From the NCBI GenBank assembly GCA_011939005.1, contig GCA_011939005.1_4858.1: a stretch of DNA of 64,000 bases. The stretch is one strand, 5' to 3'. The position numbers were made by a program, and so were the translations under genes. Numbering within the stretch: position 1 is the first letter of the stretch; the number at the start of each line of letters is the position of its first letter. A model generated the notes under the pieces. The model was not told the origin of the DNA, searched no databases, and saw only the letters and a program-made list of their open reading frames with translations. Of this stretch, positions 9,849 to 41,175 are shown one piece after another. Source of the DNA: a phage.

Positions 9849-9901
9849 GTTTGCCTTCTAATGAGAAAGTATTAGTCGTTCATATCCAAAAGGTCATGCG
9901 T

Positions 9902-9933
9902 AAAAAAGAAGAAATGGAACCCCGAAGGGTTCC
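9902..9933 (-). terminator. rho-independent terminator
   Basis: Hairpin ggaacc-ccgaa-gggttcc followed by T-run on minus strand. Confidence 0.6.
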
Positions 9934-17156: not shown

Positions 17157-17340
17157 GGTACTGCACTCCTCGTTAGGTTAAAAGTCAAGGTCAACTACAA
17201 AACAAAAGGATGTCGGTATCCTACGGATACCTCCGTTTATGTTCGCATCCAATACATAAACCCCCTTACCCCCGTACTCTCCTCGATTGTCAAACGATGA
17301 GATCGAAACGTAAAAAAGTGTAGTATGAGAGGAGGGTGGT

Positions 17341-23795: not shown

Positions 23796-23807
23796 GGAGA
23801 TTTTTGA

Positions 23808-26800
23808 ATGAAAACGTATCCTTACGATCCTCGGGGTGTAAATCCTGAGTGTCACTTCATCGAGGAACGTATCATCGACTCCGACAATCCTAACGATCGG
23901 GTGGTGATGCTAGATCATCGCCCGTTTTTCGAAGGATTGGTGGTAAGGCTCGCCGGCTCGTCCATACCGCTTACCCGCGGGACGGACTATGAGCTGGAGT
24001 ATGCTTTAACACCGTTGGACGACTCGGTGACGACCCCGGTGTTTTGCGGGGTGCATCTTATTAACCCTAAACTGCGTGGTGCGGTGGTCTTTGAAGGCCA
24101 GATGCTCGGGGGTACGTTTTACAGTGGTTTGATTGAGATGTTGGATGAGCTAGTTAAGGCACTCAACAATCCAACGGCTGCAGATTGGCTGCTTTTAGGT
24201 AATCGACCTTCCCTGTACCCAGCCACCCCTGCAGCGGTGGCTTGGTCAGACATGCTGAATAAAAAGTATGTTGCCTCTGCAGTGCATGATGTGGAGTTAG
24301 ATGCCGGGGCGGCCAACGAGCAGATTCGTGAAAAGCTTACTGAGCTGAAAGATGCGGTTTTGGGCTTAGGAACTGAAATCGCCGCATTTAACTACCCCGG
24401 ACACATTGCGTCGACTAACCCTCATGGGACTACCGCGGCGCAGGCCGGTGCGCATCCTGTCAACCTGAAAACGCCAGATACTTTCCTGGCGTATGGAAAG
24501 ACGTTGCGTCAGTTAACCAGCGAGGTCCGTGCACTGGGTCTGCAACAATCGGATATCGACAAGTACATTTCTAAATGGGTATCGAAAGAATCCAAAGGGG
24601 TGTTTAATGCGACGATATCCGGTACTCGTGCCCTGTTCCGTTCTCCTGCTGGTGAATCCGAAATTGTGTTCTCTGCTGAGGCATTCACTCTTAAATCTAA
24701 TGGCTCTGTTGTGTTGGCGTGTGGGTATGCCGACACTACTGGAACCGTCCGGTTTATGGAGTGGAAAGCAGGCATCAATACATTACGTATTGAGTCGACT
24801 GGCAGTGCCTTGGGGATGGATAAGCTGACGCTTAATGGTACGACGTTACTGACCACAACTGCTCTCATGGGCTATCAACAAGACCCTGGTACCGGCGGTG
24901 GTACCGTTGACCCGGATGACAACAAACTGTACATTAGCGGGGTGAACGGCATCACTTTCACGGGTAAAGGGTCAAAAGCCGATCCCGTCACCGGGAAGGT
25001 CACAGCCAAACCCGCGACGACCTCTGAACCAGGCGTTGTGACGCTGACTGATAAGCCGAGCGATGTAGTCAAAGGGCAAGCAGCCACCCCGTCGGCGCTT
25101 TTGCCGTATGAGGGCGACCTGTCTTCGTACGTCAGGAAGACAACGCTGCTGAATAACCAGCCGATGAACACTGGTAGTCGAACGCTGACGAAAAAGGATT
25201 TAGGTTTAGACTTGGCTGATAACACAGCTGACGTCGATAAACCACTTTCTGATGCGTTGGCAGAAGCAGTTACCGGTCTTAGTGATAAAGGTCACCATCA
25301 CAACTTCGCTGATTTACAGATTCCAACAGCCTCTCAAACTGTGCCAGGTATCGCACGATACTCTACCAACTTAAACGGCTTGGCGGATAATCGCGGCGTT
25401 ACCCCGAATGTTCTGAACGATCTGTCAAAACGTTTAGACGTAGTTGCAGCTGCGCTAGCAAACGCGAAAGAGGATTCCGTGACCGATTTTGCCGCTGTGC
25501 GTGGTAAGACTTGGACTGTGGGATCTACACGTACCACCCTCGCCGTAACGGATTTGAATTATTTCTATCTGTTAAATGGTGCACGTAAAGAGGGGACGGT
25601 ATCTGGTTCGATAGACCTGCAAACCACCCCGATGTTCCAGTGGTTCTCTCCAGATAACCGTATGGAAAGAACGTGGCAGAACGCGGTAATTAATATCGGT
25701 GACGGTATTGATTTTAGTGGGTTTGAGGTTGCCGTCCCGGAAACGAACTACGGTGCGCAGATTGGGTTAACGGCAACCGGCATGGGTGACTTATCGGTTG
25801 TTAACCTTTTAGCAAAAACGTGGGTTCGTTGCGATACAGGTAAACTACGTATTTGGGTTCGTGGCGGTGGTGCTGTTTCTGTTTATCTGGACGGTGTAAT
25901 TATCGGTGCGGGTATTACAGAAGCGGGGTATCTGGAGGCGACTGTCAAAGAGGGGTGGAAGCAACATTGCCTGGCGTTTCGTGCGGAATGTAACAATAGC
26001 GCGAAAGCAGCTGCTATACGCTTCACCATTTACGATGGTGATTACCCGGTTGCGGTGTCGGACAAAAACACCAAAGTTGCCCGCCTGCAGGAGTTTGTTA
26101 AGACCGCGAACGGTTTACGACATTATCTTTACGTGAACATGATAACCAACGCATTGTATTCACGTGCGGAACCCATTGTGGACACGGAAGGTATTAACCT
26201 GGAGCGTGGGTACATTGGTTACATTGATGTACCCGAGACGGGATTGGTTGCAGGTACGACTTACGAGTTTGAAACGACGTTTGATTTTGGCATGGCGTCC
26301 GAACTTAAACGGCACTTCGAAACACGTCTGGCGCACGGAGTGAGTAATGCCGACTGGTCGTTGACGGATAACCCAAAAATGTTACCGCTAAACAAAGTCG
26401 ATCCGTTGCCTAAACAGTGGCTTTATGCGTACCCTAATAGTCCAGTTTCTGGTAACCACTATATTCGATTAGACCGAGGGTTATTCGATTATAAATTTGA
26501 TAGTACCATTTCAAGCCTAGTGTTTGTTGGAGCGGTTGTCTCCACAGAAAGCGCATCACCGTACTGCTGGTTTACACCAAGCAACCCGAAAGAAAAAGGG
26601 ATGGCGACGTTTGAAGGTTCTGTGGTGGTCGATGTTGATTTGTCGGAAGCACAAACAGTTCGCGTTCGCGATATCACATTAAACTTCATGGCCCCGTCTG
26701 CAGATGATAAAAGCAAGACCAGGGTACTGAGATGGAGTGGCAATCGTCCAGAATTGAATTGTGGCTTCATCACGTCTCCTTATAACCAAGCAACTGGAGG

Positions 26801-27938
26801 CATCATCTCGACCACGCAGGGCAGTGTTACAAATAAGGTGCTTGAAAATCCGAGGGTAATTAAAAACCTGACGAGCCAATCTACCGAGTGTTTAGATTTT
26901 CTTTCGGTTCATACCGATAGTGAGCTTGCGCCGCTTGGAGATCGTTGGCTTGTACGTTATCGATACATTGTTGATACGCAGGTACTGCGCATCTCAATGG
27001 TTTCTAAGTTGATAGCCAATCCGCTGGTGCAGGTTTACGAAATGGAATACGACATTCCGTTTGATGCGATCGATTACTTTAAAGGTGGGGCGCTAGCCAT
27101 CCACGTTTCCGGTATTGAAACTGGAGACAACGTGACTATTAACCACGGTTTGATGCAGCCGATCATCTCAGATGTGGATATAAATCGTTTCCATTATTTA
27201 CGTTCACTGTTTGAGTCGTATATTGAAAGGACACCAGATAGACAGTCTTCCGGCCACGAGGAGATGACAGTAACAACGGTACCTTTTGCGTCATTTGGAG
27301 ATAACGTTGATCACCCGGTTACGGAATACATCACGATGTCTGCTGCAAGTGAGGGTTATCCGGAACTTGCACCGAACGGTAAACTCCCAGCGCCGTTTTA
27401 TAAAGGGCTGCAGAAACGTGGTGCTCCGCTACTTGAGTCGGCTCCTGCCGACTATACGTCTAACGGTGGTGAATGGAAGTACGGCTTTATGCGGACTTAT
27501 CGCCCGACTCAAACTGAGCGTTTTGTGTCGGTAAATGGGACAATGCTCTCTAACTACCCCGGATATATCGTCGTGGGTAGTGAGAAAATTCCGGGTAATG
27601 TTATACCTTTCAGTGCGTCGACAACAGCTGTTCGGATATCCAGGACTCTTGCCCGCACGAAACCGATGCAGCCAATTCACATCGTGTTCGTGCCTCCGGA
27701 AGGTTCTGTGCCGCCGCTGCAAGCGAAGTTCACTATTAATGGTGTGGGTAGTAGTGGTAATCCGATGTTCGTGATTACTGAAACGACACCGGTGGAACTT
27801 CGCACGGGTGGCGAGACGATTCTCATTGAGAAGCGTAATCCATTCCACATCCCCACCAGGACATGGGATTGGATTTTACAAACGTTGGATACTGAACGTA
27901 GAAACGAAGGCAACAACTCGGGTGAGTGGGCCTCTTAG
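23808..27938 (+). CDS. large virion structural protein (1376 aa; tail fibre/adhesin-like, putative)
   Basis: ATG with AAGGAGA RBS 13 nt after previous stop. Confidence 0.8.
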   Translation: MKTYPYDPRGVNPECHFIEERIIDSDNPNDRVVMLDHRPFFEGLVVRLAGSSIPLTRGTDYELEYALTPLDDSVTTPVFCGVHLINPKLRGAVVFEGQMLGGTFYSGLIEMLDELVKALNNPTAADWLLLGNRPSLYPATPAAVAWSDMLNKKYVASAVHDVELDAGAANEQIREKLTELKDAVLGLGTEIAAFNYPGHIASTNPHGTTAAQAGAHPVNLKTPDTFLAYGKTLRQLTSEVRALGLQQSDIDKYISKWVSKESKGVFNATISGTRALFRSPAGESEIVFSAEAFTLKSNGSVVLACGYADTTGTVRFMEWKAGINTLRIESTGSALGMDKLTLNGTTLLTTTALMGYQQDPGTGGGTVDPDDNKLYISGVNGITFTGKGSKADPVTGKVTAKPATTSEPGVVTLTDKPSDVVKGQAATPSALLPYEGDLSSYVRKTTLLNNQPMNTGSRTLTKKDLGLDLADNTADVDKPLSDALAEAVTGLSDKGHHHNFADLQIPTASQTVPGIARYSTNLNGLADNRGVTPNVLNDLSKRLDVVAAALANAKEDSVTDFAAVRGKTWTVGSTRTTLAVTDLNYFYLLNGARKEGTVSGSIDLQTTPMFQWFSPDNRMERTWQNAVINIGDGIDFSGFEVAVPETNYGAQIGLTATGMGDLSVVNLLAKTWVRCDTGKLRIWVRGGGAVSVYLDGVIIGAGITEAGYLEATVKEGWKQHCLAFRAECNNSAKAAAIRFTIYDGDYPVAVSDKNTKVARLQEFVKTANGLRHYLYVNMITNALYSRAEPIVDTEGINLERGYIGYIDVPETGLVAGTTYEFETTFDFGMASELKRHFETRLAHGVSNADWSLTDNPKMLPLNKVDPLPKQWLYAYPNSPVSGNHYIRLDRGLFDYKFDSTISSLVFVGAVVSTESASPYCWFTPSNPKEKGMATFEGSVVVDVDLSEAQTVRVRDITLNFMAPSADDKSKTRVLRWSGNRPELNCGFITSPYNQATGGIISTTQGSVTNKVLENPRVIKNLTSQSTECLDFLSVHTDSELAPLGDRWLVRYRYIVDTQVLRISMVSKLIANPLVQVYEMEYDIPFDAIDYFKGGALAIHVSGIETGDNVTINHGLMQPIISDVDINRFHYLRSLFESYIERTPDRQSSGHEEMTVTTVPFASFGDNVDHPVTEYITMSAASEGYPELAPNGKLPAPFYKGLQKRGAPLLESAPADYTSNGGEWKYGFMRTYRPTQTERFVSVNGTMLSNYPGYIVVGSEKIPGNVIPFSASTTAVRISRTLARTKPMQPIHIVFVPPEGSVPPLQAKFTINGVGSSGNPMFVITETTPVELRTGGETILIEKRNPFHIPTRTWDWILQTLDTERRNEGNNSGEWAS

Positions 27939-27973
27939 GACGGACTGCCTACGGGCGGGTAGTCCGTAGGTAA

Positions 27974-28011
27974 ACCGCCCTTCCGTTATTGGGAGGGCGG
28001 TCTCCGTTTTA
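27974..28011 (+). terminator. intra-operon hairpin / possible attenuator
   Basis: Stem accgccc/gggcggt followed by ctccgttttatt between two giant ORFs. Confidence 0.4.
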
Positions 28012-28033
28012 TTACAGATTAGGAGTGTTTGCA

Positions 28034-31000
28034 ATGCCGAGAGAAGATGCGGCGCAGTTTAACGGTACCCTCAGTACCGCTACTTACCCGAACCGTTATT
28101 CGACGGTCATTCCCGTCGAAGCACCGTTCTATCGCATCGGGTTAACGTTAACCGTTACCGATAAAACAACCGGAACCAAACGCAAGTTAATAGAAGGTCT
28201 TGATTATTTCTTAGGACATTACTTCCAGGAATTAGCCGAGGCTGAGAACGATGCAATATACGGCAGCATAATGCTGCTGAACGCCACAGAGGTAGAATAC
28301 GAGTTATTGTCGGTTGGTCGACAGTATCGCATCCCTGCTTCTGAAATCGGCAAGTATCTGGTTAAGACGGATATGAAAGACCCGCGCAACTGCGATTGGT
28401 CTGAGCTGATGAAATATCCGCCGATTATCTCGCCAATCGACCCGCCAAAAGATCTCGAAGAAGCCATCCTTCGCGATGAAATCGTAAAGGCGTTGGAAGA
28501 TATCCGTCTGGGTATTTTAGAACGTGCCCACGAACTGGATGAGGCTTTTGCGGAAGTTACTGATTTGATTTATCAGAACGGTAAAAAGGTGTTTGATGAC
28601 GAAATGTATCAACACCACCTGATTAAAAATGCACATGGTTACACCTGCGGTGACATTGGCGCTCTCCCGGTACTCGGCAAAGCCGTAGATGCGACTAAGG
28701 CATTCGGACGTACCCTGGCAGAGCTAGTGACGTTAATGTCTACCAGTGGCATCCAACAGAAACACGTTGACATGCTTCTGGATAATACCCTGGGTGATTT
28801 ACTGGGCCGTATGCGTGTTCTGAATAACGACGCGATTACGTTCCAAACAACGTCTGGTCACGTTATCAGCATGAAGGGTGAGAAGTTCATCATCACCTCG
28901 ACAAAACCGCTGGTATTAAAAGCTGACCAGGATAACAACGAACCGGGTATCGCTACGGAGTTCAGTGCTGGTCTGAACACGCTTTGGGTTCACTCGGGTA
29001 AAGCAGGTGACAAGTGGGGCGCTTATGATGCAGGTGTGCTTGCACCTGTGTATAACAGCGTGTATCTCGTTACGCCGGATATGGTTAAGATGTACTTGAC
29101 CTCGGTGAAGATACTTCCAGCAAACGCCTACTTCAAGTCCAGCGACACGTTGAAGATTTACGGCTCTGGTAAAGAAACAAACAAACTTTACATGAATGCG
29201 GAGCTGCCTGCAGCAACCACAACTGTGCAGGGTTTGTTTGCGATTACTAACCTTTCGGCGTCCGCTGCAGCATCCACAGCGATTTCCCAAAAAGCTGTTA
29301 CTGACTTGAAGAACAAACTCGACGGATATGTGGACGACACGTATACAGTCAACGGTAAAGGGTTTGTATTAGATTCAAACGGGCAGATGCATCTGACCTT
29401 AACCGCGGCAGATTTCGGTATTGAGAAGATGAACAATACCGGGCCGCTGGAGAAACCGGTTACTAATGCGTTGCGCACCGTGCTATCTGGCAAAGCGCTT
29501 ACAACGCACACCCACACCATTGCCGATCTCGATAACGTGCCGTACGCATCCACGTCTGTTACAGGTTTGGCTAAACTGTGGGATGCTATTGACACCACAA
29601 CAGATAAGATGGTTACTTCGCGTCAAGGCTTCTTGCTTGAACAGAAGATTGACACGCTGAATGACAAGATTGCTACGTTATTACCGGCGTGGACTGTCGG
29701 CGGATCATCGTACGGCAACAATAACTTCTTGCCTATACCTGTCCAGGGGAACTACGAAGGGTATACCAAAAACCAAACCTGGCAGAAAGGTTTGGCGCGT
29801 TACGAGTCTGGTAAGGTTTACTCGCTCCGTAACGGTTCTAACGGGAACCCACCAGGTGACTGGGCTATCTATTACGCCTATGCTGATGTGTCGCCAAGCA
29901 ATACGCTGGAAAATATGCAGCAGACGTCCGTACGCTATCGACCCGCTGGAATGTCGGCGTATCCTGGGGTGAATCTGGTTGCTATTGTGATTACCGGTAC
30001 CGATGCAATGATCTGCTTAGGCAGTGACGGTGCGTACTACCTGGTCATCTTCGATGGGACGATTGACCATGCAAAACATCATCGTGTTGTTAAAGTGGTG
30101 TTGGGTGATTACAAGAACGGTAATGGTGCGGGCACAGTAACGACAGCACCGTGGGCTCCAAACGCTTCTACAGACGATTTGATTGTTTGTAATGAACGTG
30201 TCTACCTGTTGCGTACGGTGCTTACCTCCGGTAACTATTTCGTGAGTATGCGTAGCATCGCACTCAACGAACTTAATCTGGGTGGCAGCAACACGTTTGT
30301 GGCGGATGCGTTAACAGGCGGGATATTAACGTCGGGTGAAAACGTTTATCTGCGACAGGGACAGAAACGTGCACCTTCCGATGCGCTCCCAGCACCAGTT
30401 ACACAGATCTACGCAGACGCGTTAGCGAAGTGGAACAATGCAACCAACTTTGTACATGGTCCTGAGTGTAATCACGCGATTGGTGTTGATGGGCTGAGCT
30501 TTCGTGTTGGTTTAACTCCAACGGTTTGGTTTGCTTCTACTACAGGGCAAACTATTAACTTTAAACAATGGGTGTCAAGCTTTGTTGTCGACTGTAGCGC
30601 ATTAACGGTAACGCTGGAAGGGGCTGATCGATTCCCTATTGTGGCTGATCTTACCACGGTTCGTTATAACGGTGGTACTGAGATTGGGATTCCAAGCCGG
30701 AAGTGGGGCGAAGGTCAAGCTAATAACCGAACCTTTGCAACATCGCAAGACAAGTATATCGTTTCGCAGGGACATGCAGGCGATCGCGACCTAATGCCAA
30801 TTGTCACGATTACCACGTTAGACGACGGTGTGAGTTGGTACGAGTACCTGTCGTGCGACTACAACTTCACTGCCAGAAGTTTTAGTGCGGTAATGTTAAA
30901 CCAAGGTCGTGGTTCTATCTACGAGCTAGGTATGGCGTATCCACTGACTCTGGGAGCGAATTCCAGACTTATCTGGTTGTCACAGCCACGTTCCCGTTTG

Positions 31001-33217
31001 GCAATTGAAGTTGAGTTTGATCCGAACACCACTTACTCAGGTAAGGTGGGGTATGGCCCAACTAACAATCGTCGTGTAGTAGATTCTATCACGTATGAGA
31101 ATCTGTCGCAGATGTGCCACATTGTTACACCGGCGTCGCCTGGTACAGAGTTAAACGGCTGGTATTGCACAGGGCCAGAAACATTCCCTTACCACAACGT
31201 TTCTGGCACTTTCACGATTCATGCCGATCGGTTGACGCTGTCACAGGCCGAATGGGATAAGATGAAGCAGATGATCATCGACGGTGCACCGGCAGGCGCT
31301 GCGAATGGTTATGCTTCGGAATTTATCCTTGCCGCAAATAACGCAGGAAAGGCATTGTTCTCCGTTTGGTTCATCGGCATTGGTACGGCCACACCGCTCA
31401 CGTTAGCACAAGTAGCATGTACGCGTACTGTGAACAACGTTAACGTGTTGGATATCTACTACTTTACACTGAAACCAACAATCAGCAACGGGCAGGTAAC
31501 ATTCCCCGCAGCGATATTGGCTTTGTTTGACTTCTATAACAACCTCGACTATAGCTTGAACTATGCTACGTTGGGTGAGATAACGGGAGGAAAAACACGC
31601 CGGCCGGGACAACCTACCTTGGTGTCAGTAGATGGTACTCAGTTCGGGTTGTATCTTCCACACACGTTAACCTTGCGCCAAATTGGCGACTTGGGTGCGC
31701 TTAACTACGCTGTTGGTCTTACGCTGTCTAATGGTACTTGGACGCGTTCTTCTGCTCCACACGGCGTTGGACGTATGGCACCGTCACACACTCCAGTCAG
31801 TCCAGCTTATCTGGCACATCGCGATCAAGTGATGTTACACAACTCATCTCTCGACTACGTCTATTGTGGTGGTATCGCAACGCCGTCGAGAGATTTTGTC
31901 GCGGCTCCTAATTTTAGTGGCCCGACTGAATCGGTTGTCATTGCTGGTGTGGAAACAGCTGAAGGTTGGCTGGTATATGTGACTGAGGAAGTTGACCTGC
32001 GTTTCGGCTCGAGCACTTATAAGCTGCCTACGTGGTATATTGACCTCAGCGCAGCATTTCCAACAAACCATCAGAACCGGACATTCTACCTGCACGCCAA
32101 GGTAGAAAATGGTACACCGAAGTACGTAATGGACGTGGTTCAACATCCAGACACTGAAACGGAACTCTACATCGGGTATGTTAAAACGGGCTCGTCGCGA
32201 GTCGTCGAGACTAACGTCGAACATGCTAAGCGATTGGGGGCGGTGAAACAACTGTTGGAACATGCGGCGGTTGAGAATAAGCATGATGTGGAGGTGGGAA
32301 GGGATGCGGCAACGGGCAGACTGGCACCATTGCGTAAAGAAGCGATGGGTCCTTTGTCTATCGATGCTACGAAAGGCTATCTGGATAGTCAGTTGCTTTA
32401 TACCGTATCTGACGCACAGCGTCGCGGTAAACCGATGGTCTCCAAACGTTTCGAAGGCTTGAAAACTTTGCCGGCGTTTACTCAGGCAAACAAGTCGGGG
32501 GCGTTTTGGAAACATCCTACAACAATTGCGACGGTAACGGCCGATGAGAACGGTGAAGCGGCATCGTTGGGAATGGAGTGGGTGGGTATCCCTACGCCTG
32601 CTTTCTCTCCGACCTCAGGAATGATGATAGTGGTGATACAAAGTAAATTCGTCGTCCCAGGTACACCGGGAGTAGAAACGACCTTTAATGTCAACATCGC
32701 CCCATGGGATACGGTAGATAGATTTTTCTACAACGTCGAGGCGGAAGGTAAGGATGTTAACATTGAAGAAAATCCAGAAGTGCTAATGCCGACACCACAT
32801 ACCGTGTATCACAAACAGCATTCTCTGCCCGCAGGCGTGCCATGTACGTTTACTTTCGCTGCTGTGTTGAGTTCCCCAGCGCTTGAGATGGCCAACCAGC
32901 ATATTTGCTCTTGGCTTTTCACGGACGCGGGGGGACTACCAATCACCACCGATCTTTCGGATAGTAAGATTCAAATCTTACCATTGGGGGGAGAGACCTA
33001 CGGCACACCAGTTGTTTTGAACAGCCGTAGCTACACGTTTGTGGATGTGGCGGGTGCAATTCCGGTTGTTACCACGGGCGCTCAGGGTTTATTCCCACCA
33101 CCGATCGTGGCGTGGGATGGCGATGATCTTACGTTAACGATTGCGCACGATTGGGTGAACGAGAGAGGATGGCAACAGCCTGATATTATCCAGGTCAATC
33201 TTATGTTCCGTACCTAA
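28034..33217 (+). CDS. giant virion structural protein (about 1728 aa; tail fibre/adhesin-like, putative)
   Basis: ATG at 28034 with AGGAGTG RBS preferred over track start 27989, which lies in the hairpin. Confidence 0.8.
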   Translation: MPREDAAQFNGTLSTATYPNRYSTVIPVEAPFYRIGLTLTVTDKTTGTKRKLIEGLDYFLGHYFQELAEAENDAIYGSIMLLNATEVEYELLSVGRQYRIPASEIGKYLVKTDMKDPRNCDWSELMKYPPIISPIDPPKDLEEAILRDEIVKALEDIRLGILERAHELDEAFAEVTDLIYQNGKKVFDDEMYQHHLIKNAHGYTCGDIGALPVLGKAVDATKAFGRTLAELVTLMSTSGIQQKHVDMLLDNTLGDLLGRMRVLNNDAITFQTTSGHVISMKGEKFIITSTKPLVLKADQDNNEPGIATEFSAGLNTLWVHSGKAGDKWGAYDAGVLAPVYNSVYLVTPDMVKMYLTSVKILPANAYFKSSDTLKIYGSGKETNKLYMNAELPAATTTVQGLFAITNLSASAAASTAISQKAVTDLKNKLDGYVDDTYTVNGKGFVLDSNGQMHLTLTAADFGIEKMNNTGPLEKPVTNALRTVLSGKALTTHTHTIADLDNVPYASTSVTGLAKLWDAIDTTTDKMVTSRQGFLLEQKIDTLNDKIATLLPAWTVGGSSYGNNNFLPIPVQGNYEGYTKNQTWQKGLARYESGKVYSLRNGSNGNPPGDWAIYYAYADVSPSNTLENMQQTSVRYRPAGMSAYPGVNLVAIVITGTDAMICLGSDGAYYLVIFDGTIDHAKHHRVVKVVLGDYKNGNGAGTVTTAPWAPNASTDDLIVCNERVYLLRTVLTSGNYFVSMRSIALNELNLGGSNTFVADALTGGILTSGENVYLRQGQKRAPSDALPAPVTQIYADALAKWNNATNFVHGPECNHAIGVDGLSFRVGLTPTVWFASTTGQTINFKQWVSSFVVDCSALTVTLEGADRFPIVADLTTVRYNGGTEIGIPSRKWGEGQANNRTFATSQDKYIVSQGHAGDRDLMPIVTITTLDDGVSWYEYLSCDYNFTARSFSAVMLNQGRGSIYELGMAYPLTLGANSRLIWLSQPRSRLAIEVEFDPNTTYSGKVGYGPTNNRRVVDSITYENLSQMCHIVTPASPGTELNGWYCTGPETFPYHNVSGTFTIHADRLTLSQAEWDKMKQMIIDGAPAGAANGYASEFILAANNAGKALFSVWFIGIGTATPLTLAQVACTRTVNNVNVLDIYYFTLKPTISNGQVTFPAAILALFDFYNNLDYSLNYATLGEITGGKTRRPGQPTLVSVDGTQFGLYLPHTLTLRQIGDLGALNYAVGLTLSNGTWTRSSAPHGVGRMAPSHTPVSPAYLAHRDQVMLHNSSLDYVYCGGIATPSRDFVAAPNFSGPTESVVIAGVETAEGWLVYVTEEVDLRFGSSTYKLPTWYIDLSAAFPTNHQNRTFYLHAKVENGTPKYVMDVVQHPDTETELYIGYVKTGSSRVVETNVEHAKRLGAVKQLLEHAAVENKHDVEVGRDAATGRLAPLRKEAMGPLSIDATKGYLDSQLLYTVSDAQRRGKPMVSKRFEGLKTLPAFTQANKSGAFWKHPTTIATVTADENGEAASLGMEWVGIPTPAFSPTSGMMIVVIQSKFVVPGTPGVETTFNVNIAPWDTVDRFFYNVEAEGKDVNIEENPEVLMPTPHTVYHKQHSLPAGVPCTFTFAAVLSSPALEMANQHICSWLFTDAGGLPITTDLSDSKIQILPLGGETYGTPVVLNSRSYTFVDVAGAIPVVTTGAQGLFPPPIVAWDGDDLTLTIAHDWVNERGWQQPDIIQVNLMFRT

Positions 33218-33264
33218 CAGATAGCGCTATGGGGCAAGGAAGCCCCAATCAAAGGAGTTTGGCA

Positions 33265-34467
33265 ATGGCCGAAATCATTTATCAGTACCCGCTCGACCTT
33301 ACCGGGACATTAACGTCGAACGCCGTTACGCGGCGTATTACGTTAGGTTCTGGTAAAGTTAACCGGGCTTTTGCATTTCCTGACGGAGCTTTCTACGCGG
33401 ATACCTTCCGCTTGGCGGCTGCGAATAAACCAGGTGTCTACCCGTACAAACGCGGCACAGACTACGAACTGATTTTTGCACATACTGCATATCAGAAAAT
33501 GACCAAGAACCGCGAAGTGGTCATGGGTGTGGTGGTAACTAACTCGGCCATTCCTACTGATATCGAAGTCTCTGCGCAAGTCGTTGGTGGTTTTCAGTCC
33601 GCGAACGTCGAAGGCATCCGACAAGCGATTGCGTCGTTGAAAATTGAAGACCGCGTGGTGGACTTCAAGGATCTTCGAAACGTACCCGATACGTTCCCGT
33701 CCGCACCGACGTATAAAGACCTTGGCGATATCTACGGTTTTGAGTATATCATTACCGTACTCGCGGGGATTAAAGATGCGATTAACTCCGGCTCTGCAGT
33801 ACAGCTGGAAGAAATTAAAGGTATTCTGGGTGGTCTGAAAAACGACTTCCTCGACGCCTTAAATGCCCACATCAACGCCGAAGGTAACGTACACAATCTC
33901 GACATTCATCAGGTTAATGGCCTGACGGAGACGGAGATTCGTGCCCTGATTCAAAGTGTACAGACTGCCATTGACGCCACCATCAAAGATATCGGCGACT
34001 TAAGAGCAGCAGACACAGCGTTGGGGCAACGCATCGATGCAATTGTGGCTTCGTTAGCCGCGTGGAACGACCAGCTTAACGTGGTTGCTCAAAATTACCA
34101 GAAAATGTCGTTAGCATTAGCTAACCTTAATTCTCTGGTGTTGCAATTACAGAAGATGGTTAACGATCTTCAGTCTGCACTGAATAAAACAAATCAGCGC
34201 GTCACGGATCTTGAGAATCAGGGCAAAGACTTCCAACAGCAAATTGATAACCTGCAAGGACAAATCAACAGTCTTAAAACTCAGGTTGTAAATAACACCA
34301 ACGCAATTTCGCAGGCAAACCAGAATCTGGCGAACCATGCGGCTGCGGATAACCCACACCCGAATTACCTCCATAAACAGTATGGCGGTGTTGTGCAGGC
34401 TGCTGTTCACGTCAACAACAACCTCACCTCGCGCGACGATGTTCAAGCTGAAGCGGGTACTAAGTAA
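33265..34467 (+). CDS. coiled-coil fibre-like protein (401 aa)
   Basis: ATG at 33265 with AAAGGAG RBS; C-terminal half is a long heptad-like Q/N/L-rich coiled coil. Confidence 0.75.
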   Translation: MAEIIYQYPLDLTGTLTSNAVTRRITLGSGKVNRAFAFPDGAFYADTFRLAAANKPGVYPYKRGTDYELIFAHTAYQKMTKNREVVMGVVVTNSAIPTDIEVSAQVVGGFQSANVEGIRQAIASLKIEDRVVDFKDLRNVPDTFPSAPTYKDLGDIYGFEYIITVLAGIKDAINSGSAVQLEEIKGILGGLKNDFLDALNAHINAEGNVHNLDIHQVNGLTETEIRALIQSVQTAIDATIKDIGDLRAADTALGQRIDAIVASLAAWNDQLNVVAQNYQKMSLALANLNSLVLQLQKMVNDLQSALNKTNQRVTDLENQGKDFQQQIDNLQGQINSLKTQVVNNTNAISQANQNLANHAAADNPHPNYLHKQYGGVVQAAVHVNNNLTSRDDVQAEAGTK

Positions 34468-34477
34468 CTTGTTTACG

Positions 34478-34521
34478 AGCCGGACTATGTTTATGGACAT
34501 AGTCCGCTCGTTCTACTTTTT
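34478..34521 (+). terminator. imperfect hairpin plus short T-run (weak terminator or processing site)
   Basis: gagccggactatg / catagtccgctc stem with one bulge, then cttttt, immediately before the RBS of the first Cys-rich ORF. Confidence 0.35.
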
Positions 34522-34532
34522 AAGGAAGCGTA

Positions 34533-34925
34533 ATGGCGATATCTATTAAAGACGTCAGAAACCGCGTCCAGATAGTCGAAGCTAACATGGCGACAGGCCC
34601 CCGCGTCGACGCGCAAGTGGCCTCTAAAGCCCATAATGCGGCAGACCGATTTGGGGGTTGGACGAAAACACAGCTAGATTGCGGAGGGACATGTTCTTGG
34701 ACGTGCTCTAACGGTTGCTCGCATGGCTGTTCGAGCTGTTCAGGAAGCTGTTCTGCTTCTTGTATCGGTAGCTGTTCTTCGACGTGTGGCGGTAACTGTT
34801 CTGGTTGCTCTGGTTGTTCTGGTGGTTGCAGTAGTAGCTGTACCGGTAACTGCACAGGTGGTTGCGGTGGCTCTTGTTCTTCCAATTGTTCCGGAGCCTG
34901 CTCCGGTGGCTGTTCAGGTCGCTAA
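34533..34925 (+). CDS. Cys/Ser/Gly-rich small protein 1 (130 aa): leader-like N-terminus plus about 16 CxxxC tetrad repeats; candidate radical-SAM substrate
   Basis: ATG with AAGGAAG RBS; core DCGGTCSWTCSNGCSHGCSSCSGSCSASC...; paralogous to the next two ORFs. Confidence 0.65.
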   Translation: MAISIKDVRNRVQIVEANMATGPRVDAQVASKAHNAADRFGGWTKTQLDCGGTCSWTCSNGCSHGCSSCSGSCSASCIGSCSSTCGGNCSGCSGCSGGCSSSCTGNCTGGCGGSCSSNCSGACSGGCSGR

Positions 34926-34935
34926 GGGGGATTAA

Positions 34936-35340
34936 ATGGCAATTGGATTAAAAGAACTGAATAACCGATTAAACACGATCGATGCAAACGCTCTAAAGAA
35001 TACCACGAATGTGCAAAACTACATTCGCAATAAAGCTACGAATAACGCTGACTTGTTCGCAGGTCAAGGTCGTTCGCACTACGACTGTGGTGGTACGTGT
35101 TCTTTTAGCTGCTCAAGTTGCTCTGGCGGGTGTACTGGGTCTGCGACAGGTGGTTGTGGGTCGACTTGTTCGGCAAACTGTGTATCAGGCTGTAGCAGCA
35201 GCTGCACGGGCTGTAGCTCTTCGTGCTCTGGTGGTTGTAGCGGCACGTGCACAGGCAGCTGTTCTGGGGGTTGTGGTAAATCCTGCTCCGCAAACTGCTC
35301 AGGTGCGTGCTCTGGTGGTTGTTCAGGTCCTAACTCCTAA
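34936..35340 (+). CDS. Cys/Ser/Gly-rich small protein 2 (134 aa), paralog of 34533..34925
   Basis: ATG with AAGGGGGA RBS; same leader-like N-terminus and core start DCGGTCSFSCSSCSGGC. Confidence 0.65.
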   Translation: MAIGLKELNNRLNTIDANALKNTTNVQNYIRNKATNNADLFAGQGRSHYDCGGTCSFSCSSCSGGCTGSATGGCGSTCSANCVSGCSSSCTGCSSSCSGGCSGTCTGSCSGGCGKSCSANCSGACSGGCSGPNS

Positions 35341-35355
35341 CTGACGGAGGCTTAT

Positions 35356-35562
35356 GTGATCAGTCTCAAGACTATTCGAAACCGTCTCGTTACGGCAGAA
35401 GGTTACATTACAACCGCACAGGCAAACAACTATATCGCTAACCAGGGCACCGTGTCGACCACAAATAACCTGGCTGGCTTACCGCTTTCTCACTATAACT
35501 GTAATGGTGGGTGTAGCTGGTCCTGCAGCGGAAGCTGTAGCCGTGGAGCGGGGAATCGATAA
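35356..35562 (+). CDS. Cys/Ser/Gly-rich small protein 3 (68 aa, short core), paralog
   Basis: GTG start with GGAGG RBS; conserved leader and core start NCNGGCSWSCSGSCS. Confidence 0.5.
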   Translation: MISLKTIRNRLVTAEGYITTAQANNYIANQGTVSTTNNLAGLPLSHYNCNGGCSWSCSGSCSRGAGNR

Positions 35563-35584
35563 CAGAAAACGTTCGGAGTATTAA

Positions 35585-36472
35585 ATGAAAAACGATTTGC
35601 ATCTTGCGTATAAAACCACATTCAACCACCCGCTGCATCTATCTTCCCCAGATTCAGTGCGTGCACATCTCGCTGACAAAGTCAGACTGATTGCACAGAT
35701 TCCTGGTGAGTGGCCAAAGGTTCGTGGTCGCTTCTTGACCGACAAGAAGAACTACACCGTAGAAAATACGTTTAAGATCCGTGATATGGTTGCAGAGGCC
35801 ATCGTTATCTTTAACGGCGATGGTAACTCTCGCGGCGTGTTGGTTGACGGTAAGTATTTCTTCAGTGAAGGGATTCTGAACAACAGTGTCGATTTAGAAC
35901 TGATGTTTACACCGTTTGACGAACTTGAAGCAAAACCGATGGCGCGCCGTTGGTGGAGTCCGGACTATCTGGGCTCGTTCCCTTACTACTTTGTACTGGT
36001 ACCTGCCGATACGGAAACGTATTTCGACACCGAACCATACATCGATATCGAGGGGTATAAAGAACTCGGCATCACCCGTTTAGCGGACATGATGGCGTAT
36101 AGCTATAAGTTCGTGTGGGATAAAAAGCGTTCTGTCTGGTATGCGCTGACTGACGATTTTGAAATCACCAAGCGTATTCGTAAGCCGTGGATGCAACACC
36201 TGGTTCAAACTCGATATGGGGATTACCCGGCGACAGAAGCGGATTTGAGTAAGCTGGTAAGTTTCCTCTTAACGAAGGTGGATTTAACGAAAGAAGAAGC
36301 AGAAGCTGTTTCTGAGATTCGTGGTCGTTCGGTAACGTTGGCCGATTTGAAACGTCTGAACGAAAGACACGCCGACCTGAACAAAATTTTAGCTGCCTAT
36401 CACGACCCGATGTTACTGGTGCCTGGCGCTAACGTAGACGAAGATCCTTTATTCGCCATTGATTATATTTAA
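35585..36472 (+). CDS. hypothetical protein (295 aa) in radical-SAM cluster
   Basis: ATG with GGAG RBS; no recognisable motif. Confidence 0.65.
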   Translation: MKNDLHLAYKTTFNHPLHLSSPDSVRAHLADKVRLIAQIPGEWPKVRGRFLTDKKNYTVENTFKIRDMVAEAIVIFNGDGNSRGVLVDGKYFFSEGILNNSVDLELMFTPFDELEAKPMARRWWSPDYLGSFPYYFVLVPADTETYFDTEPYIDIEGYKELGITRLADMMAYSYKFVWDKKRSVWYALTDDFEITKRIRKPWMQHLVQTRYGDYPATEADLSKLVSFLLTKVDLTKEEAEAVSEIRGRSVTLADLKRLNERHADLNKILAAYHDPMLLVPGANVDEDPLFAIDYI

Positions 36473-36494
36473 AAATATACTGGAGCAACCTGCA

Positions 36495-37409
36495 ATGACA
36501 GATCAAGTAGAATCCAGGATCTCGTCTGAACTGTACGACAAACCGTCAATTCTGTCGGTTGTCGCAACTTCTAAGTGTAACTTAGACTGTAGCTTCTGTG
36601 GAGGGGCTTATTACATGGATAGAGAAGATACTTCTCGTGAGTTTCAACGTGAAGAGATTCTCTCGATTTTAGAGAAGAATCCGGATATCGGTGAGATTCA
36701 TTGGACGGGCGGTGAGCCGCTGTTAGCGCAGCGCAAGATTGAAGACTTCGTGAACGAGTTGAAGGAGTCTCATCCGAACCTCCGTCATCACATGTACACC
36801 AACGGTTTAAAGATGCGTAAATCACATCTGCCGTTGCTGAAACAGTTCGACCTTATCTTTGTGTCCATTGACGGCTACAAGAAGTCGGAACGTCCGTTTA
36901 TGAACTTTGTAAACGGTGGTAATCACGAAGCGCTGGAAGTGCTGTACGAGCTGGACAACTATTACACCTGGGGTGTGATGACGCGTGACCAGTTAGGTGA
37001 TAAACGCTGGTACGAAGATTTCATCGAGCTGCACCGAGCAATCTATCATTACCGTCCAGGTGGTATGTCGTTGCTGTTTGATGCGATGATGCCGAAACCG
37101 TTATCGCCAGACCACGTCATGAACTTCATGTACGGGTATTGGAAAATACTCGACAATATCGAACGCCTTAACATGCAGAACGATTCTGAATGTGGGCTTG
37201 CGATCAGTAAAATGTTCGATACCGAGTGCAACACGTGCAGTGAAGTGCTGTGGCTTAACGCCGACGGTACGCAGGAGCAAATTCAGAACGCCCCAGAGAT
37301 ATTGGAAGTCGGCTGTAATCGCCTGGCGCGTTCTATCGGCGTTGATGCGTATAACTACATCAACCGTGTAATTTCTGCTAAGCGTAAACGGGCGGCGAAC
37401 AATGAGTAA
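36495..37409 (+). CDS. radical SAM enzyme (305 aa)
   Basis: CNLDCSFC (CxxxCxxC) near N-terminus, GGEPLL and YTNGL motifs, additional C-terminal Cys (ECNTCSEV...GCN); ATG at 36495 with GGAG RBS. Confidence 0.8.
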   Translation: MTDQVESRISSELYDKPSILSVVATSKCNLDCSFCGGAYYMDREDTSREFQREEILSILEKNPDIGEIHWTGGEPLLAQRKIEDFVNELKESHPNLRHHMYTNGLKMRKSHLPLLKQFDLIFVSIDGYKKSERPFMNFVNGGNHEALEVLYELDNYYTWGVMTRDQLGDKRWYEDFIELHRAIYHYRPGGMSLLFDAMMPKPLSPDHVMNFMYGYWKILDNIERLNMQNDSECGLAISKMFDTECNTCSEVLWLNADGTQEQIQNAPEILEVGCNRLARSIGVDAYNYINRVISAKRKRAANNE

Positions 37410-38730
37410 TAGCGAACAGCAAATCCAGTACACACCACGCACGTATCAGGTTGTGACTAACCTGTCATGTAACCTGGACTGCGAATACTGCTACGAGCGT
37501 AAATATCCACGCAATAACAAAGTAGCTGACGTGATTGATTTTATCCACGCTTGCTTCGAGCGCGATAAAGATATCCCGAACGTTGAAGTCATCATCGATA
37601 TCATCGGTGGTGAGCCGTTCATGCAGCCTAAACTTCTTTTGGCGGCCTTTGAAACCGCAGAGAAGTTATGCGCAGAACACAATCGCCCGTATATGTTCAG
37701 TATCTCCACGAACGGTACACTTCTGGACCGTCCGCTGAACAAAGAAATTATCGAGCGCTGGAAAGACAAACTGTCTATTGGGGTCTCCATCGATGGTTTA
37801 CCTGAAGTCCATGACAAATATCGTATCTTTACCACGACGCGTGAAGGGTCGTACGAAGCTGCGGTACGTGGTTACAATTATCTGAAGAGTGTTGGCATCG
37901 CTGAACTGGGCGTAAAGGCGACGTTTACGATCGATACATTGCCGCACTATGCCGCCAGCATGAAATCGTTAATTGACATGTCCGGCGGTGGTACCATTTC
38001 TGGTAACGTAACGTACGAAGATATCCTACCGCGCCATATGGCGTTGGATATCGCGAACCAGATGATGGACGTGATGGACTACTGGATTGAGAAGGGTCTG
38101 CACACCAACCCGCGTAACACGATTACACACATCATCCCGGATGGCCTGAACTTTATGGCAACTTGGGACCCGGATTGGCGTGACAAACTCTTACATGACG
38201 ACTCTGTTCGTCTCGACCCAGAACGCCTGAAACCGTACTGCGGTACGTTGACGCACATGACCTGTCTCGGCTTTGATCGCAAGATTTACGGTTGTAACCG
38301 TTTCATGTCCACGGTAACTTCCCGTTCTGCTGTAGCAGAACTGGTCGGTCGTGAGTTTGTGAGCCTGGACGGTGGTAAGCTGTTAGAAGAGATTCAAACG
38401 CAGTACACCAACTACCCAGAAACCTGTTTAGGGTGTCCGATGAAACACAGTTGCGGTAGCTGCGCGGCAGCATCGTACGAAAACGGTGAAGGTACACTGG
38501 AAGACCGTAAAGCGTATCATGCCGAGCGTCGTCAGTGTGGTTGGACTACTGCGAAGCTGATGGCGGCAGAATATTGGTATCAGAAAACTGGTACGACCCG
38601 CGCATCAGATTTGCATGATAAATCCATGTGCTATTGTTCACGTTGTGTACGCCAACGTGCTGAAGCAGAAAAATTACAAAACGGAGCCCAGAATGAAGTC
38701 AATACTGATTCACAATTTTACGAAGCGTAA
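37402..38730 (+). CDS. radical SAM enzyme with SPASM-like C-terminal Cys cluster (442 aa)
   Basis: CNLDCEYC, GGEPF, STNGTLL motifs; C-terminal CLGCPMKHSCGSCAAASY and CYCSRC; overlaps previous gene by 8 nt. Confidence 0.85.
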   Translation: MSNSEQQIQYTPRTYQVVTNLSCNLDCEYCYERKYPRNNKVADVIDFIHACFERDKDIPNVEVIIDIIGGEPFMQPKLLLAAFETAEKLCAEHNRPYMFSISTNGTLLDRPLNKEIIERWKDKLSIGVSIDGLPEVHDKYRIFTTTREGSYEAAVRGYNYLKSVGIAELGVKATFTIDTLPHYAASMKSLIDMSGGGTISGNVTYEDILPRHMALDIANQMMDVMDYWIEKGLHTNPRNTITHIIPDGLNFMATWDPDWRDKLLHDDSVRLDPERLKPYCGTLTHMTCLGFDRKIYGCNRFMSTVTSRSAVAELVGREFVSLDGGKLLEEIQTQYTNYPETCLGCPMKHSCGSCAAASYENGEGTLEDRKAYHAERRQCGWTTAKLMAAEYWYQKTGTTRASDLHDKSMCYCSRCVRQRAEAEKLQNGAQNEVNTDSQFYEA

Positions 38731-39259
38731 ACTGCACTTGGTCGATCGCTTCCTGCGCAAAAGCAAGCTGTACAATGTGCACGCAATTGTGGCAGGGGAA
38801 GACTTCACTGATGAAATCCAAAGCCTGTTGATTAAATACGGGCTGAATGTGATGATCCCGGTCTACTGCGTTGAGAAAGGACACGAGTCTGTCGCAGAAA
38901 TCGAAAAGCGCAATCCTGGCTTTGAGAAGCGATTGCTCGCATACCCACGCCACAAAATCGAACTGCTACGTCATTCCATCGATGAAGCCAGTCCTGAAAG
39001 TTTAGTGGCTTTGGGCTTGTCTTTCCCGCGGATGCGTATTCGTAACTTACGCTCCAATAATCCGGTCGACGCGTATTACACAGAGCGTCAAATCTTTGAA
39101 GAACATCTGCTCCCGCAGTTGGAAGAAGAAGAGCAACACAACATTTCGTTGTTGTGGGCCGGTAACCTCGATCAGGACTTCCAGATGCTGGACTTCGGTT
39201 TGTTGTTAGAACTTGGCCTGATTGAGGAGGACGAATGTCTGTTACTGACAAAAGCTTAA
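38693..39259 (+). CDS. hypothetical protein (189 aa) in radical-SAM cluster
   Basis: ATG at 38693 with ACGGAG RBS preferred over track start 38615. Confidence 0.5.
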   Translation: MKSILIHNFTKRKLHLVDRFLRKSKLYNVHAIVAGEDFTDEIQSLLIKYGLNVMIPVYCVEKGHESVAEIEKRNPGFEKRLLAYPRHKIELLRHSIDEASPESLVALGLSFPRMRIRNLRSNNPVDAYYTERQIFEEHLLPQLEEEEQHNISLLWAGNLDQDFQMLDFGLLLELGLIEEDECLLLTKA

Positions 39260-39906
39260 CGAACGAAGAGATCCGCGCCCGTTATTTCCAGCGCAATTTG
39301 CCGATTGACCGACACGGCAACTTCATGGAACGTATCGGTGCAGAGGATCAAGGCCGTACAGGCTTTTGCGCTCTGCTCCATTATCATCTCATCGAAGGGA
39401 TGTCTGATAAAGAAGCCCTGGCACGCATGAAGCTGTATGAGATGTCGGAGATTGAAGCTAACTTCACATTGAAACGCACGAAAGAGTTTATTGCTAATGT
39501 GCTGGAGATTGACCTCGACGAAATTCGCGGGAATCTAAAATCTACCGCACGTTACATTTACGAAGACGTGCAGAAGATGCTGTTGGAACTCGACCACCGC
39601 TACGAAGATGAGCGCCATGGTTATATCGAGTTTGAAGGTAGTCACTTTCAAGCCGATGAATCGTCGCGTACCATCCTCGGTCAATACATTCAGGCAGATA
39701 CCGCACCAGAATACTGGCTCGATACGCTGAATACTAAGCACAGTCCGTTTACAGTAGACCAATGTAAAGCGTTGTTGGGCGCTATTGTTGCACGCGACCA
39801 AGTGTTGCACTCAGCAATGGCAGATAACAAACGCCAAATCCGTGAGTTAGCTGAAAAGCGCGATTACACTGGATTAAAAACATTGTCCGAGTCACTCGGC
39901 ATGTAA
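39235..39906 (+). CDS. hypothetical protein (223 aa) in radical-SAM cluster
   Basis: ATG with perfect GAGGAGG RBS; followed by terminator. Confidence 0.65.
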   Translation: MSVTDKSLTNEEIRARYFQRNLPIDRHGNFMERIGAEDQGRTGFCALLHYHLIEGMSDKEALARMKLYEMSEIEANFTLKRTKEFIANVLEIDLDEIRGNLKSTARYIYEDVQKMLLELDHRYEDERHGYIEFEGSHFQADESSRTILGQYIQADTAPEYWLDTLNTKHSPFTVDQCKALLGAIVARDQVLHSAMADNKRQIRELAEKRDYTGLKTLSESLGM

Positions 39907-39908: not shown

Positions 39909-39965
39909 AAAGAAAATAAAGGCCCTACCTCCCCGAAGGGAGGTAGGTACCTTTTATTTATTTCT
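39909..39965. terminator. bidirectional rho-independent terminator
   Basis: Hairpin ccctacctcccc-gaa-gggaggtagg flanked by A-run and T-run; closes the plus-strand block. Confidence 0.7.
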
Positions 39966-41131: not shown

Positions 41132-41175
41132 TGCTTACCCACTCCCGTAAGGGGAGTGGGTAAGGGCTTTATTTA
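41121..41175. terminator. rho-independent terminator (bidirectional)
   Basis: Hairpin cttacccactccc-gtaa-ggggagtgggtaag with flanking A-run and T-run. Confidence 0.65.

Follow-up and report, generated by a model that had tools for sequence, protein, structure and literature searches.

The stretch of phage DNA analysed here, 64,000 nucleotides that we call the window (contig GCA_011939005.1_4858.1), raises a question at the junction between a gene for a fibre protein and a cluster of genes for Cys-rich proteins. A hairpin lies in the gap of 65 nt between them, and it needs to be asked whether this hairpin ends the transcripts of the structural genes, whether the cluster is reached by read-through, or whether the same DNA also holds a start site for the cluster. 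An initial annotation had read the hairpin as a possible partial terminator or processing site and had recognised no separate promoter for the cluster.

Results

The phage and the genes on both sides of the gap

Across the 3.3 kb around the hairpin, DNA identity is 98-99% with Escherichia phage EC001 and Salmonella phage SPN3US (Seoulvirus); with SPAsTU and Erwinia phage pEa_SNUABM_29 it falls to 78-81%. The window is DNA of an SPN3US-like nucleus-forming jumbo phage, related to phiKZ. Phages related to phiKZ use their own virion and non-virion polymerases to transcribe their DNA, not the host enzyme (PMC7598289). Seven genes for RNA polymerase beta subunits are annotated in SPN3US (split genes); none of them lies within the window itself. 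Between 27 and 42 kb, sigma-70-like sites are fewer than expected (8 vs 18.5 in shuffles), and the sigma-70 scan gave no host-type promoter for the Cys-rich cluster and none on the plus strand near the site. The absence of a host-type promoter is expected, because the phage uses its own polymerases. Our literature search found no transcriptome for any Seoulvirus and no promoter or terminator map for SPN3US-type phages.

The fibre gene (33229..34467, plus strand, stop codon TAA at 34465-34467) encodes a coiled-coil virion structural protein and stands fourth and last in a row of large co-directional structural genes (20082-34467). It shares 98-99% DNA identity with the SPN3US/EC001 gene annotated 'virion structural protein' gp099, and its product matches phrog_2163, a virion structural protein, with an E value of 5e-108; Pfam matches are weak and of the coiled-coil type only. 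Beyond the gap, the ORF list gives three paralogous Cys-rich ORFs on the plus strand (34533-34925, 34936-35340 and 35356-35562), the first of which has the ribosome-binding site (RBS) AAGGAAG at 34522..34528, 4 nt before its ATG at 34533. The AAGGA of this RBS is invariant in an alignment of 16 orthologous sequences (alignment A3). All three ORFs have full-length matches to phrog_6085 (E 1e-40 to 3e-24). In NCBIfam, TIGR04114 ('Cys-rich repeat-containing protein') is matched weakly by ORF1 (18.9 bits) and ORF2 (17.1 bits), below its cut-off of 20, and ORF3 gives no match.

The rest of the predicted downstream unit (35585..39906, plus strand) encodes a 295-aa protein, two radical SAM enzymes (36459-37409 and 37402-38730), a 214-aa protein and a DUF4376 protein; the Pfam matches are Radical_SAM, twice, and DUF4376. 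The enzyme at 37402-38730 has its best NCBIfam match in TIGR04115 ('radical SAM peptide maturase, CXXX-repeat target family'; E 3e-36), a match that falls short of the curated cut-off, and the next-best matches are PapB-type ranthipeptide maturases. The order of the cluster genes is conserved in four genera. A canonical bidirectional terminator at 39924..39947 (CCTACCTCCC CGAA GGGAGGTAGG, with T-rich tails on both sides), found by the terminator scan and by folding of intergenic regions, is likely the 3' end of the downstream unit.

A stable hairpin follows the fibre gene

The hairpin (34475..34511, plus strand) begins 8 nt past the TAA of the fibre gene, in sense orientation, and its anatomy resembles that of an intrinsic terminator. 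Positions 34475-34491 pair with 34496-34511 (arms CGAGCCGGACTATGTT / GACATAGTCCGCTCG) to form a stem of 16 bp, including one terminal A-U and one G.U pair, with a bulged C at 34481, an AU-rich upper part and a UAUG tetraloop at 34492-34495. The U-rich tail TTCTACTTTTT (34511..34521, plus strand; 8 of 11 positions are T) consists of TTCTAC and then T5 at 34517-34521. Read from the end of the stem (UUCUACUUUUU), it has three U among its first 4 nt, and T5 begins 5 nt beyond the stem. A hairpin with a short T run abutting the RBS had been annotated at this place, and it is there; its stem, put at 12 bp, is longer than annotated, and the hairpin is stronger.

Folding energy had been suggested as a check, and it bears the hairpin out. 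The minimum free energy (MFE) of the RNA is -23.7 kcal/mol, with z of -4.5 in a context of 65 nt and -6.0 in a context of 58 nt, and in both contexts none of 200 dinucleotide shuffles folds as stably. A fold with DNA parameters gives -15.0 kcal/mol (z -8), and the other strand, at -14.8 kcal/mol, is equally stable. The consensus terminator scan does not list this hairpin, because of its bulge and because T5 starts 5 nt after the stem. In Rfam, no family reaches its gathering threshold (best 15-17 bits vs thresholds of 33-106).

Compensatory changes keep the hairpin

Fibre orthologues and the sequence downstream of them were gathered from GenBank phages, IMG/VR and metagenomes. The set comprises 39 loci with 20 distinct intergenic sequences in five clades, namely Seoulvirus, Erskinevirus, Machinavirus, Derbicusvirus and an uncultured clade. 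In all 39 loci, a hairpin stands 7-15 nt past the fibre stop codon. The arm sequences diverge between clades yet remain complementary, with stems of 11-17 bp in the orthologues. A MAFFT alignment of 16 orthologues gave no structure with RNAalifold: since the clades differ in where the bulge lies and in how large the loop is, their 3' arms are out of register. An arm-swap test was used in its place, together with a count of pairs in the upper helix, where the sequences are in register.

In seven sequences from Seoulvirus and the uncultured clade, 98.1% of the cells of the upper helix are paired, against 21-57% in slid controls. Four of the eight pairs of this helix have changed on both sides (A-U to G-C, C-G to U-A, U-A to C-G), and the covariation score is 0.518 vs 0.296 in shuffles (1 of 500). 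The native hairpins average -18.6 kcal/mol, compared with -9.2 kcal/mol for 112 chimeras with arms swapped between clades, which is the background level; only chimeras of Erskinevirus and Machinavirus, which share arms, remain stable. The hairpin is therefore kept by compensatory changes, and the comparative data refute a chance origin. A distant relative (L045, 39% fibre identity) has also kept a hairpin, with a GTAA loop and no TATG.

Owing to G.U pairs, the sense RNA folds 0.6-6.4 kcal/mol more stably than the antisense RNA in 12 of 15 orthologues; the bias is reversed in the three Derbicusvirus sequences. A T-rich tail follows the stem in four of the five clades and is good in the Erskinevirus, Machinavirus and uncultured-clade orthologues. 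In Derbicusvirus, the tail is nearly absent and the stem runs directly into the RBS. Since both the tail and the sense bias are lost in Derbicusvirus, termination is not the sole possible reason for keeping the hairpin. From its sequence features, the hairpin fits a terminator or another RNA 3'-end element. The terminator-like character proposed in the initial annotation is supported by the sense orientation after the stop codon, the U-rich tail, the compensatory changes and the sense-strand bias.

The hairpin among the terminator-like hairpins of the phage

All intergenic regions of the window and of the whole SPN3US genome were folded, which gave 40 terminator-like hairpins in SPN3US (median MFE -21.1 kcal/mol). 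The fibre-gene hairpin ranks 12th of the 40 in stability. Its GC fraction of 0.5 is typical for the set, and it has a tetraloop, as do 31 of the 40, mostly of the UUCG or CGAA type by inspection; only in T content, with 7 of 14, does it fall at the low end. It had been described as weaker than the canonical terminators; this holds for the T tract but not for the stability of the stem. A run of at least four T begins 0-11 nt past the stem in the 40 hairpins, and at least 3 nt past it in 10 of them, so that the T5 offset of 5 nt falls within their range. The spacer between stem and T run in the SPN3US hairpins is frequently pyrimidine-rich, e.g. TTCTTA or TCCTCTTA.

The polymerases of phiKZ and 201phi2-1 use many hairpin terminators (PMC10914365, PMC11512511). 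The element here shares with these phiKZ-like intrinsic terminators (Putzeys 2024, PMC10914365; 201phi2-1, PMC11512511) a stable stem-loop after a stop codon, a short U-containing tail and a genome transcribed by phage polymerases. Other terminators of the window, e.g. that at 39924-39947, resemble the phiKZ terminator motif (BCCYCCCCHWWDGGGRRGGBYTTATKYYGT). The fibre-gene hairpin differs from it in lacking the CCYCCC / GGGRGG core and TTAT, and it is also without the UUCG- or GNRA-type loop common to the other terminators of the window. Its upper stem is AU-rich, a bulge interrupts the stem, and the loop holds a candidate promoter core.

A candidate promoter motif is built into the hairpin

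A TTAC element (34473..34476, plus strand), within TTTACG, overlaps the base of the hairpin, and a TATG (34492..34495, plus strand) forms its apex. With the predicted start at G34495, TTAC would lie at -22 to -19 and the 5' UTR would be 38 nt long; the fold of this predicted primary leader is not significant (z -0.66). None of the 20 distinct orthologous sequences departs from AC-N15-TATG, and its distance is constant although stem length, bulge position and loop size vary. In alignment A3, few columns are invariant besides the stop codon, the RBS and the start codon; they are AC at 34475-34476, the G-C pair 34482/34505 and TATG at 34492-34495. A second TATG in the 5' arm (34486-34489) was considered as a start and rejected, as SPAsTU and pEa29 have TCATG there.

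The same motif recurs across the genome. TATG is the second most under-represented tetramer in the window, after GATC, under a maximal-order Markov model. Compared with synonymous-codon shuffles, genes hold 167 vs 239 copies in sense (z -6.9) and 57 vs 112 in antisense (z -6.3), while TATA, TATC, TATT, AATG, CATG and GATG show no depletion in this test. Between the genes of SPN3US, 53 TATG point toward the start of the downstream gene vs 18 in the opposite direction (p 4e-5), a direction bias second only to that of AAAA among tetramers; AATG, CATG and GATG are unbiased. Its density per kb is 5.6 in divergent gaps, 3.9 in co-directional gaps in sense, 2.4 in convergent gaps and 1.2 in co-directional gaps in antisense, and therefore the word goes with gene starts, not with gene ends. 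We also considered TATG as a word linked to terminators in SPN3US, since in phiKZ the conserved bidirectional terminators have TTATG directly after the stem, and rejected it: the density is highest in divergent gaps, which hold promoters only, and low in convergent ones.

A TTAC with its C at exactly -19 accompanies 12 of 73 intergenic TATG in SPN3US, and any other offset gives at most 3. TTAC-N15-TATG occurs 24 times in SPN3US, vs 1-8 times (mean about 4) at spacings of 8-23. The predicted start at window 34495 corresponds to about position 144258 of SPN3US, minus strand, and further sites of the motif in that genome are at 1161, 57144, 64412, 100159, 109947, 168867, 187607 and 196300. Sixteen WWAC-N15-TATG sites sit 5-120 nt upstream of a gene start in SPN3US. 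Their logo is A/T-rich from -29 to -23; TTAC follows at -22 to -19, 11 of the 16 sites have G at -18, and TATG ends the motif. These gene-proximal sites mostly precede non-structural genes. The N15 peak recurs in the first 100 kb of the Derbicusvirus EarlPhillipIV, where WWAC gives 20 sites vs 3-11 at other spacings and TTAC gives 9 vs 0-4. A 45-kb piece of phiKZ has no spacing peak of TTAC-N15-TATG.

A second locus, upstream of an SMC-like gene (window 9903, minus strand), shows similar conservation. TTTAC is invariant there in five of five orthologues from three genera, and N15-TATG is kept in four of the five (Seoulvirus and Machinavirus), while spacer and flanks diverge; in the Derbicusvirus Phobos, TATA replaces TATG. 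The proposal that TTAC-N15-TATG is the promoter consensus of this phage group, of the phiKZ type and closest to its 'middle' class, is well supported by these sequence comparisons. The site at 34473-34495 is a full match to the consensus. The Cys-rich cluster thus probably has its own promoter, and the initial annotation, which recognised none, probably missed it: the conserved motif is built into the hairpin itself and recurs both genome-wide and in Derbicusvirus. With such a motif at the hairpin, expression of the cluster need not depend on read-through.

Nested and serial layouts

The usual layout in SPN3US is serial: a terminator hairpin is followed by a T run that merges into TTTTTTAC, then by N15 and TATG (e.g. 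window 9903, minus strand). At 34475, the layout is nested: TTAC reaches into the base of the 5' arm, and the loop is made up of TATG. Nesting recurs at SPN3US 200931, where ATAC-N15-TATG lies in AGGGTGTCCATATGGACACCCT and is followed by T8 and an RBS, at SPN3US 72661, where the T run is absent, and in EarlPhillipIV at 34724 and 98678, where T7 and an RBS follow in both cases. Most TTAC-N15-TATG sites are without a hairpin. Among the gene-proximal motif sites of SPN3US, about 3 of 16 are nested in one, and 13 of 16 have no hairpin around TATG. Hairpins with TATG at the apex were also considered as a general promoter class, and this is unsupported: with stems of at least 7 bp, they hold 24 of 974 TATG (2.5%), vs 1.9% for all tetramers. 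We read the nesting as two putative signals packed into a gap of 65 nt, and do not take it as something that the promoter requires.

Likeness to known promoters

In phiKZ, late promoters carry T(-3)ATG(+1), and all four bases are required for initiation by the non-virion RNA polymerase (nvRNAP) (PMC4666361, PMC7598289). Middle promoters of phiKZ have the element AAanTTACc, with its centre at about -24, and some have TATG as well (Yakunina 2015, PMC4666361). Purified phiKZ nvRNAP was inactive on middle promoters in vitro (PMC4666361); an additional factor may therefore be needed. What gives phiKZ-type nvRNAP promoters their specificity beyond TATG is an open question (PMC7618050, PMC4666361).

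The site here has TATG at the predicted start, with G as the proposed first base, and a TTAC about 20 nt upstream that is preceded by A/T-rich sequence, and a phage-encoded multisubunit polymerase is annotated in SPN3US; as in phiKZ, the motif lies 25-60 nt upstream of start codons. Compared with phiKZ as it is described in the literature, the TTAC-N15-TATG spacing is strict, with C at -19, and about 2 nt tighter. A further difference is that TATG is strongly avoided here and is said to be frequent in phiKZ.

Hairpins are also part of the promoters of the phage N4 virion RNA polymerase, which have a stem of 5-7 bp, a 3-nt loop and initiation downstream of the hairpin. The N4 enzyme is a single-subunit polymerase helped by the host SSB. 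An inverted repeat at the promoter and conserved loop bases are common to N4 and to the site here. In contrast, the stem here has 16 bp, the loop has 4 nt, the start is predicted within that loop and the sister promoters mostly have no hairpin; the site does not conform to an N4-type hairpin promoter.

Discussion

We propose that the 65-nt gap is a compact terminator-promoter junction, which would be read by the phage's own multisubunit RNA polymerase. First, for transcripts that come in from the structural genes, the hairpin and its U-rich tail would act as an intrinsic-type terminator or as a 3'-end hairpin; we infer this step from the anatomy, the orientation, the covariation and the sense-strand bias. 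Second, the same DNA would hold a 'middle-like' bipartite promoter of the phiKZ type, with initiation at G34495 within the hairpin loop, as the recurrence of the motif, its fixed spacing and its conservation suggest. An RNA that starts at G34495 would have only the 3' arm; thus, it could not form the hairpin and would escape termination. Such RNAs would carry an unstructured 38-nt leader that includes the RBS. The Cys-rich / radical-SAM cluster, which runs to about 39.9 kb, would then be a separate unit with its own timing, fed not by leak-through only.

To this reading, a terminator of the structural unit with a nested phage-polymerase promoter whose predicted +1 is G34495, we give a probability of about 0.5. 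A weakness of the model is that the U tract is interrupted, with UUCUAC before U5. As at other terminator-then-promoter boundaries of phage units, adjacent units would be insulated by a terminator and restarted by a promoter. Unlike those boundaries, this one is nested and not serial, and the RNAs initiated at it would lack the 5' arm.

It is also conceivable, but unlikely, that the element is a terminator or attenuator only, that the structural transcript ends there fully or partly with the cluster expressed by read-through, and that TTAC and TATG have another role or evolve slowly. Terminator hairpins are common in this phage, and the anatomy, covariation, sense-strand bias and U-rich tail of this one fit such an element. 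However, a terminator alone leaves unexplained why AC-N15-TATG is invariant across five clades despite the turnover of the stem, why the spacing peaks genome-wide and is replicated, and why TATG is avoided and directional; moreover, the loops of the other terminators are mostly UUCG- or CGAA-type tetraloops, not UAUG.

The converse, that the inverted repeat acts at the DNA level for a promoter only, with an extruded or melted stem-loop that presents TATG and with little or no termination, is distinctly unlikely. It would account for TATG exactly at the apex in all clades, for the Derbicusvirus hairpin that is kept without a U tract or sense-strand bias, and for a fold that is equal on both strands with DNA parameters, and it would fit the open source of specificity of the 4-nt phiKZ promoter (PMC7618050). 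Against it stand the 13 of 16 gene-proximal TTAC-type sites that have no hairpin around TATG, the G.U pairs that favour the sense RNA in 12 of 15 orthologues, and the T-rich tail directly after the stem in four of five clades. We consider it very unlikely that both hold in one element, i.e. that the inverted repeat takes part in promoter recognition as a DNA stem-loop presenting single-stranded TATG to the nvRNAP and is also an RNA terminator. If true, this presentation would be one answer to the specificity of the 4-nt core motif.

A role in RNA processing or stability, either as an RNase III/RNase E-type site or as a 3' protective hairpin derived from a polycistronic RNA, is highly improbable. 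A conserved sense-strand hairpin between two functional modules could serve in this way, and SPN3US annotates a ribonuclease and a 3'-5' exoribonuclease. Classical RNase III substrates have about two helical turns of duplex, roughly 20 bp, and the stem is shorter than that both here, where it has 16 bp and a bulge, and in the orthologues (11-17 bp); no Rfam family matches, and the statistics of TTAC-N15-TATG are left unexplained. Nothing specific points to the processing site that had been suggested. Finally, a chance inverted repeat without function has nothing in its favour except that short hairpins are common, and with no shuffle of 200 as stable and compensatory change in five clades, it has next to no probability.

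Three testable findings came out of the study of this site. A strict consensus, A/T-rich-TTAC(G)-N14/15-TATG, is put forward for these phages from spacing statistics in two genera and conservation at two loci. The second is the strong genome-wide avoidance of TATG. The third, the proposed nested layout, would uncouple a radical-SAM / Cys-rich peptide cluster from the virion genes next to it, and a promoter of its own would let this module keep a schedule apart from the four giant structural genes upstream. Should these findings not be confirmed, the element is still an ordinary, well-conserved terminator. If they are confirmed, they would offer building blocks for the engineering of such phages and a way to get at when the cluster is expressed.

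Other proposed terminator-promoter junctions in the window

The TATG core of the proposed TTAC-N15-TATG promoter also meets terminator-like structures elsewhere in the window. Upstream of the SMC/SbcC-like gene (window 9881-9903, minus strand), terminator and promoter are arranged in series: the hairpin GGAACCC TTCG GGGTTCC is followed by a T run running into TTTTTTAC, then by N15 and TATG. At this junction, TTTAC is unchanged in 5/5 orthologues from 3 genera, and N15-TATG is retained in 4/5 (Seoulvirus and Machinavirus). A second hairpin with TATG in its loop, ATGCCTCAC TATG AGTGGGGTAT, lies at about 5665-5700 on the minus strand, with the TATG at 5689; after it come TTTTTAC, the RBS GAGGAG and an ATG. 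Downstream of that TATG, a TTAC-N15-TATG motif starts at 5673 and overlaps what is probably the true start codon of the ORF, near 5650; a caller that picks the most upstream start had this ORF begin at 5698. In the divergent gap at 17157-17340, the palindrome GTTTATGTTCGCATCCAATACATAAAC places GTTTATG on each strand, and it is possible that it forms a pair of back-to-back TATG start sites between the two divergent genes.

In phiKZ (L030, positions 130000-175000), each of the five conserved bidirectional terminators that separate convergent genes is an extended palindrome with the pattern CATAAnGC-CCTCCC...GGGAGG-GCnTTATG, and 8 of the 10 strand copies have TATG within 2-4 nt of the stem end. 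The 'TTAT' in the published phiKZ motif thus often makes the late-promoter word. The terminators of the present phage share a style, both in the window (812-850, 39924-39947, 41134-41164 and about 10 others) and in the SPN3US genome. Their stems frequently carry CCYMCYCCC/GGGAGKRGG-like cores, similar to the published phiKZ terminator motif (PMC10914365), and a pyrimidine-rich spacer is frequent between the stem and T5-8. A tetraloop, mostly UUCG- or CGAA-type by inspection, closes 31 of the 40 terminator-like intergenic hairpins of SPN3US. Two strong hairpins stand in tandem between the genes for the 1376-aa and 1742-aa structural proteins (27939-28033, plus strand); CTCCGTTTTATTAC comes directly after the second one, ahead of an RBS. 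The TTG start listed at 27989 (plus strand) is probably too early; the SPN3US annotation places the start downstream, at an ATG at about 28034.

The metagenome contig CEUP01014081.1 (L045), a distant relative whose fibre protein is 39% identical, keeps the order of fibre gene, hairpin and leader-like ORF (MISLKDVKKQ...). The loop of this hairpin is GTAA; the hairpin contains no TATG and is nearly devoid of a T run.

Avoidance of TATG and a separate AT-rich motif

TATG and its complement CATA show the strongest under-representation of any tetramer except GATC, in the whole window as well as in the SPN3US genome (L025-L029). Against synonymous-codon shuffles, TATG occurs 167 times on the sense strand (239 expected) and 57 times on the antisense strand (112 expected), and words close to TATG show no depletion in the same comparison. 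This avoidance is consistent with a promoter core being counter-selected. Two other tetramers are likewise strongly depleted in coding sequence across the window: GATC (112 vs 248 expected, z -12), which suggests restriction or Dam-related pressure, and AATT (162 vs 298 expected, z -9.8).

A separate AT-rich motif, tttCAGATAKATRTTAYYTWRGTGAG, occurs on the minus strand at 61105, 16831, 13062 and 11243. SPN3US has 14 copies, all on a single strand and every one in a pre-gene gap; the motif is similar to the AT-rich early promoters that the virion polymerase of phiKZ-like phages is described as using.

The Cys-rich region

Public records annotate the Cys-rich region inconsistently (35009-35344, plus strand; L003, L006, L007 and L009). 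In the RefSeq record of SPN3US, gp100 is the ORF2 region read in another frame, and ORF1 and ORF3 are without annotation; several Erwinia phage records carry opposite-strand ORFs here. PHROG matches support the Cys-rich frame.

The three Cys-rich ORFs are paralogous; all of them combine a conserved leader of ~50 aa with CxxxC-type repeats, and two radical SAM enzymes lie 3' of them (34533-38730, plus strand). The top NCBIfam matches in this module, TIGR04114 and TIGR04115, form a CXXX-repeat peptide/maturase pair, each match being under its cut-off, and the module is kept in four genera. Judged from these features, this jumbo phage appears to carry a RiPP-like module for peptide modification.
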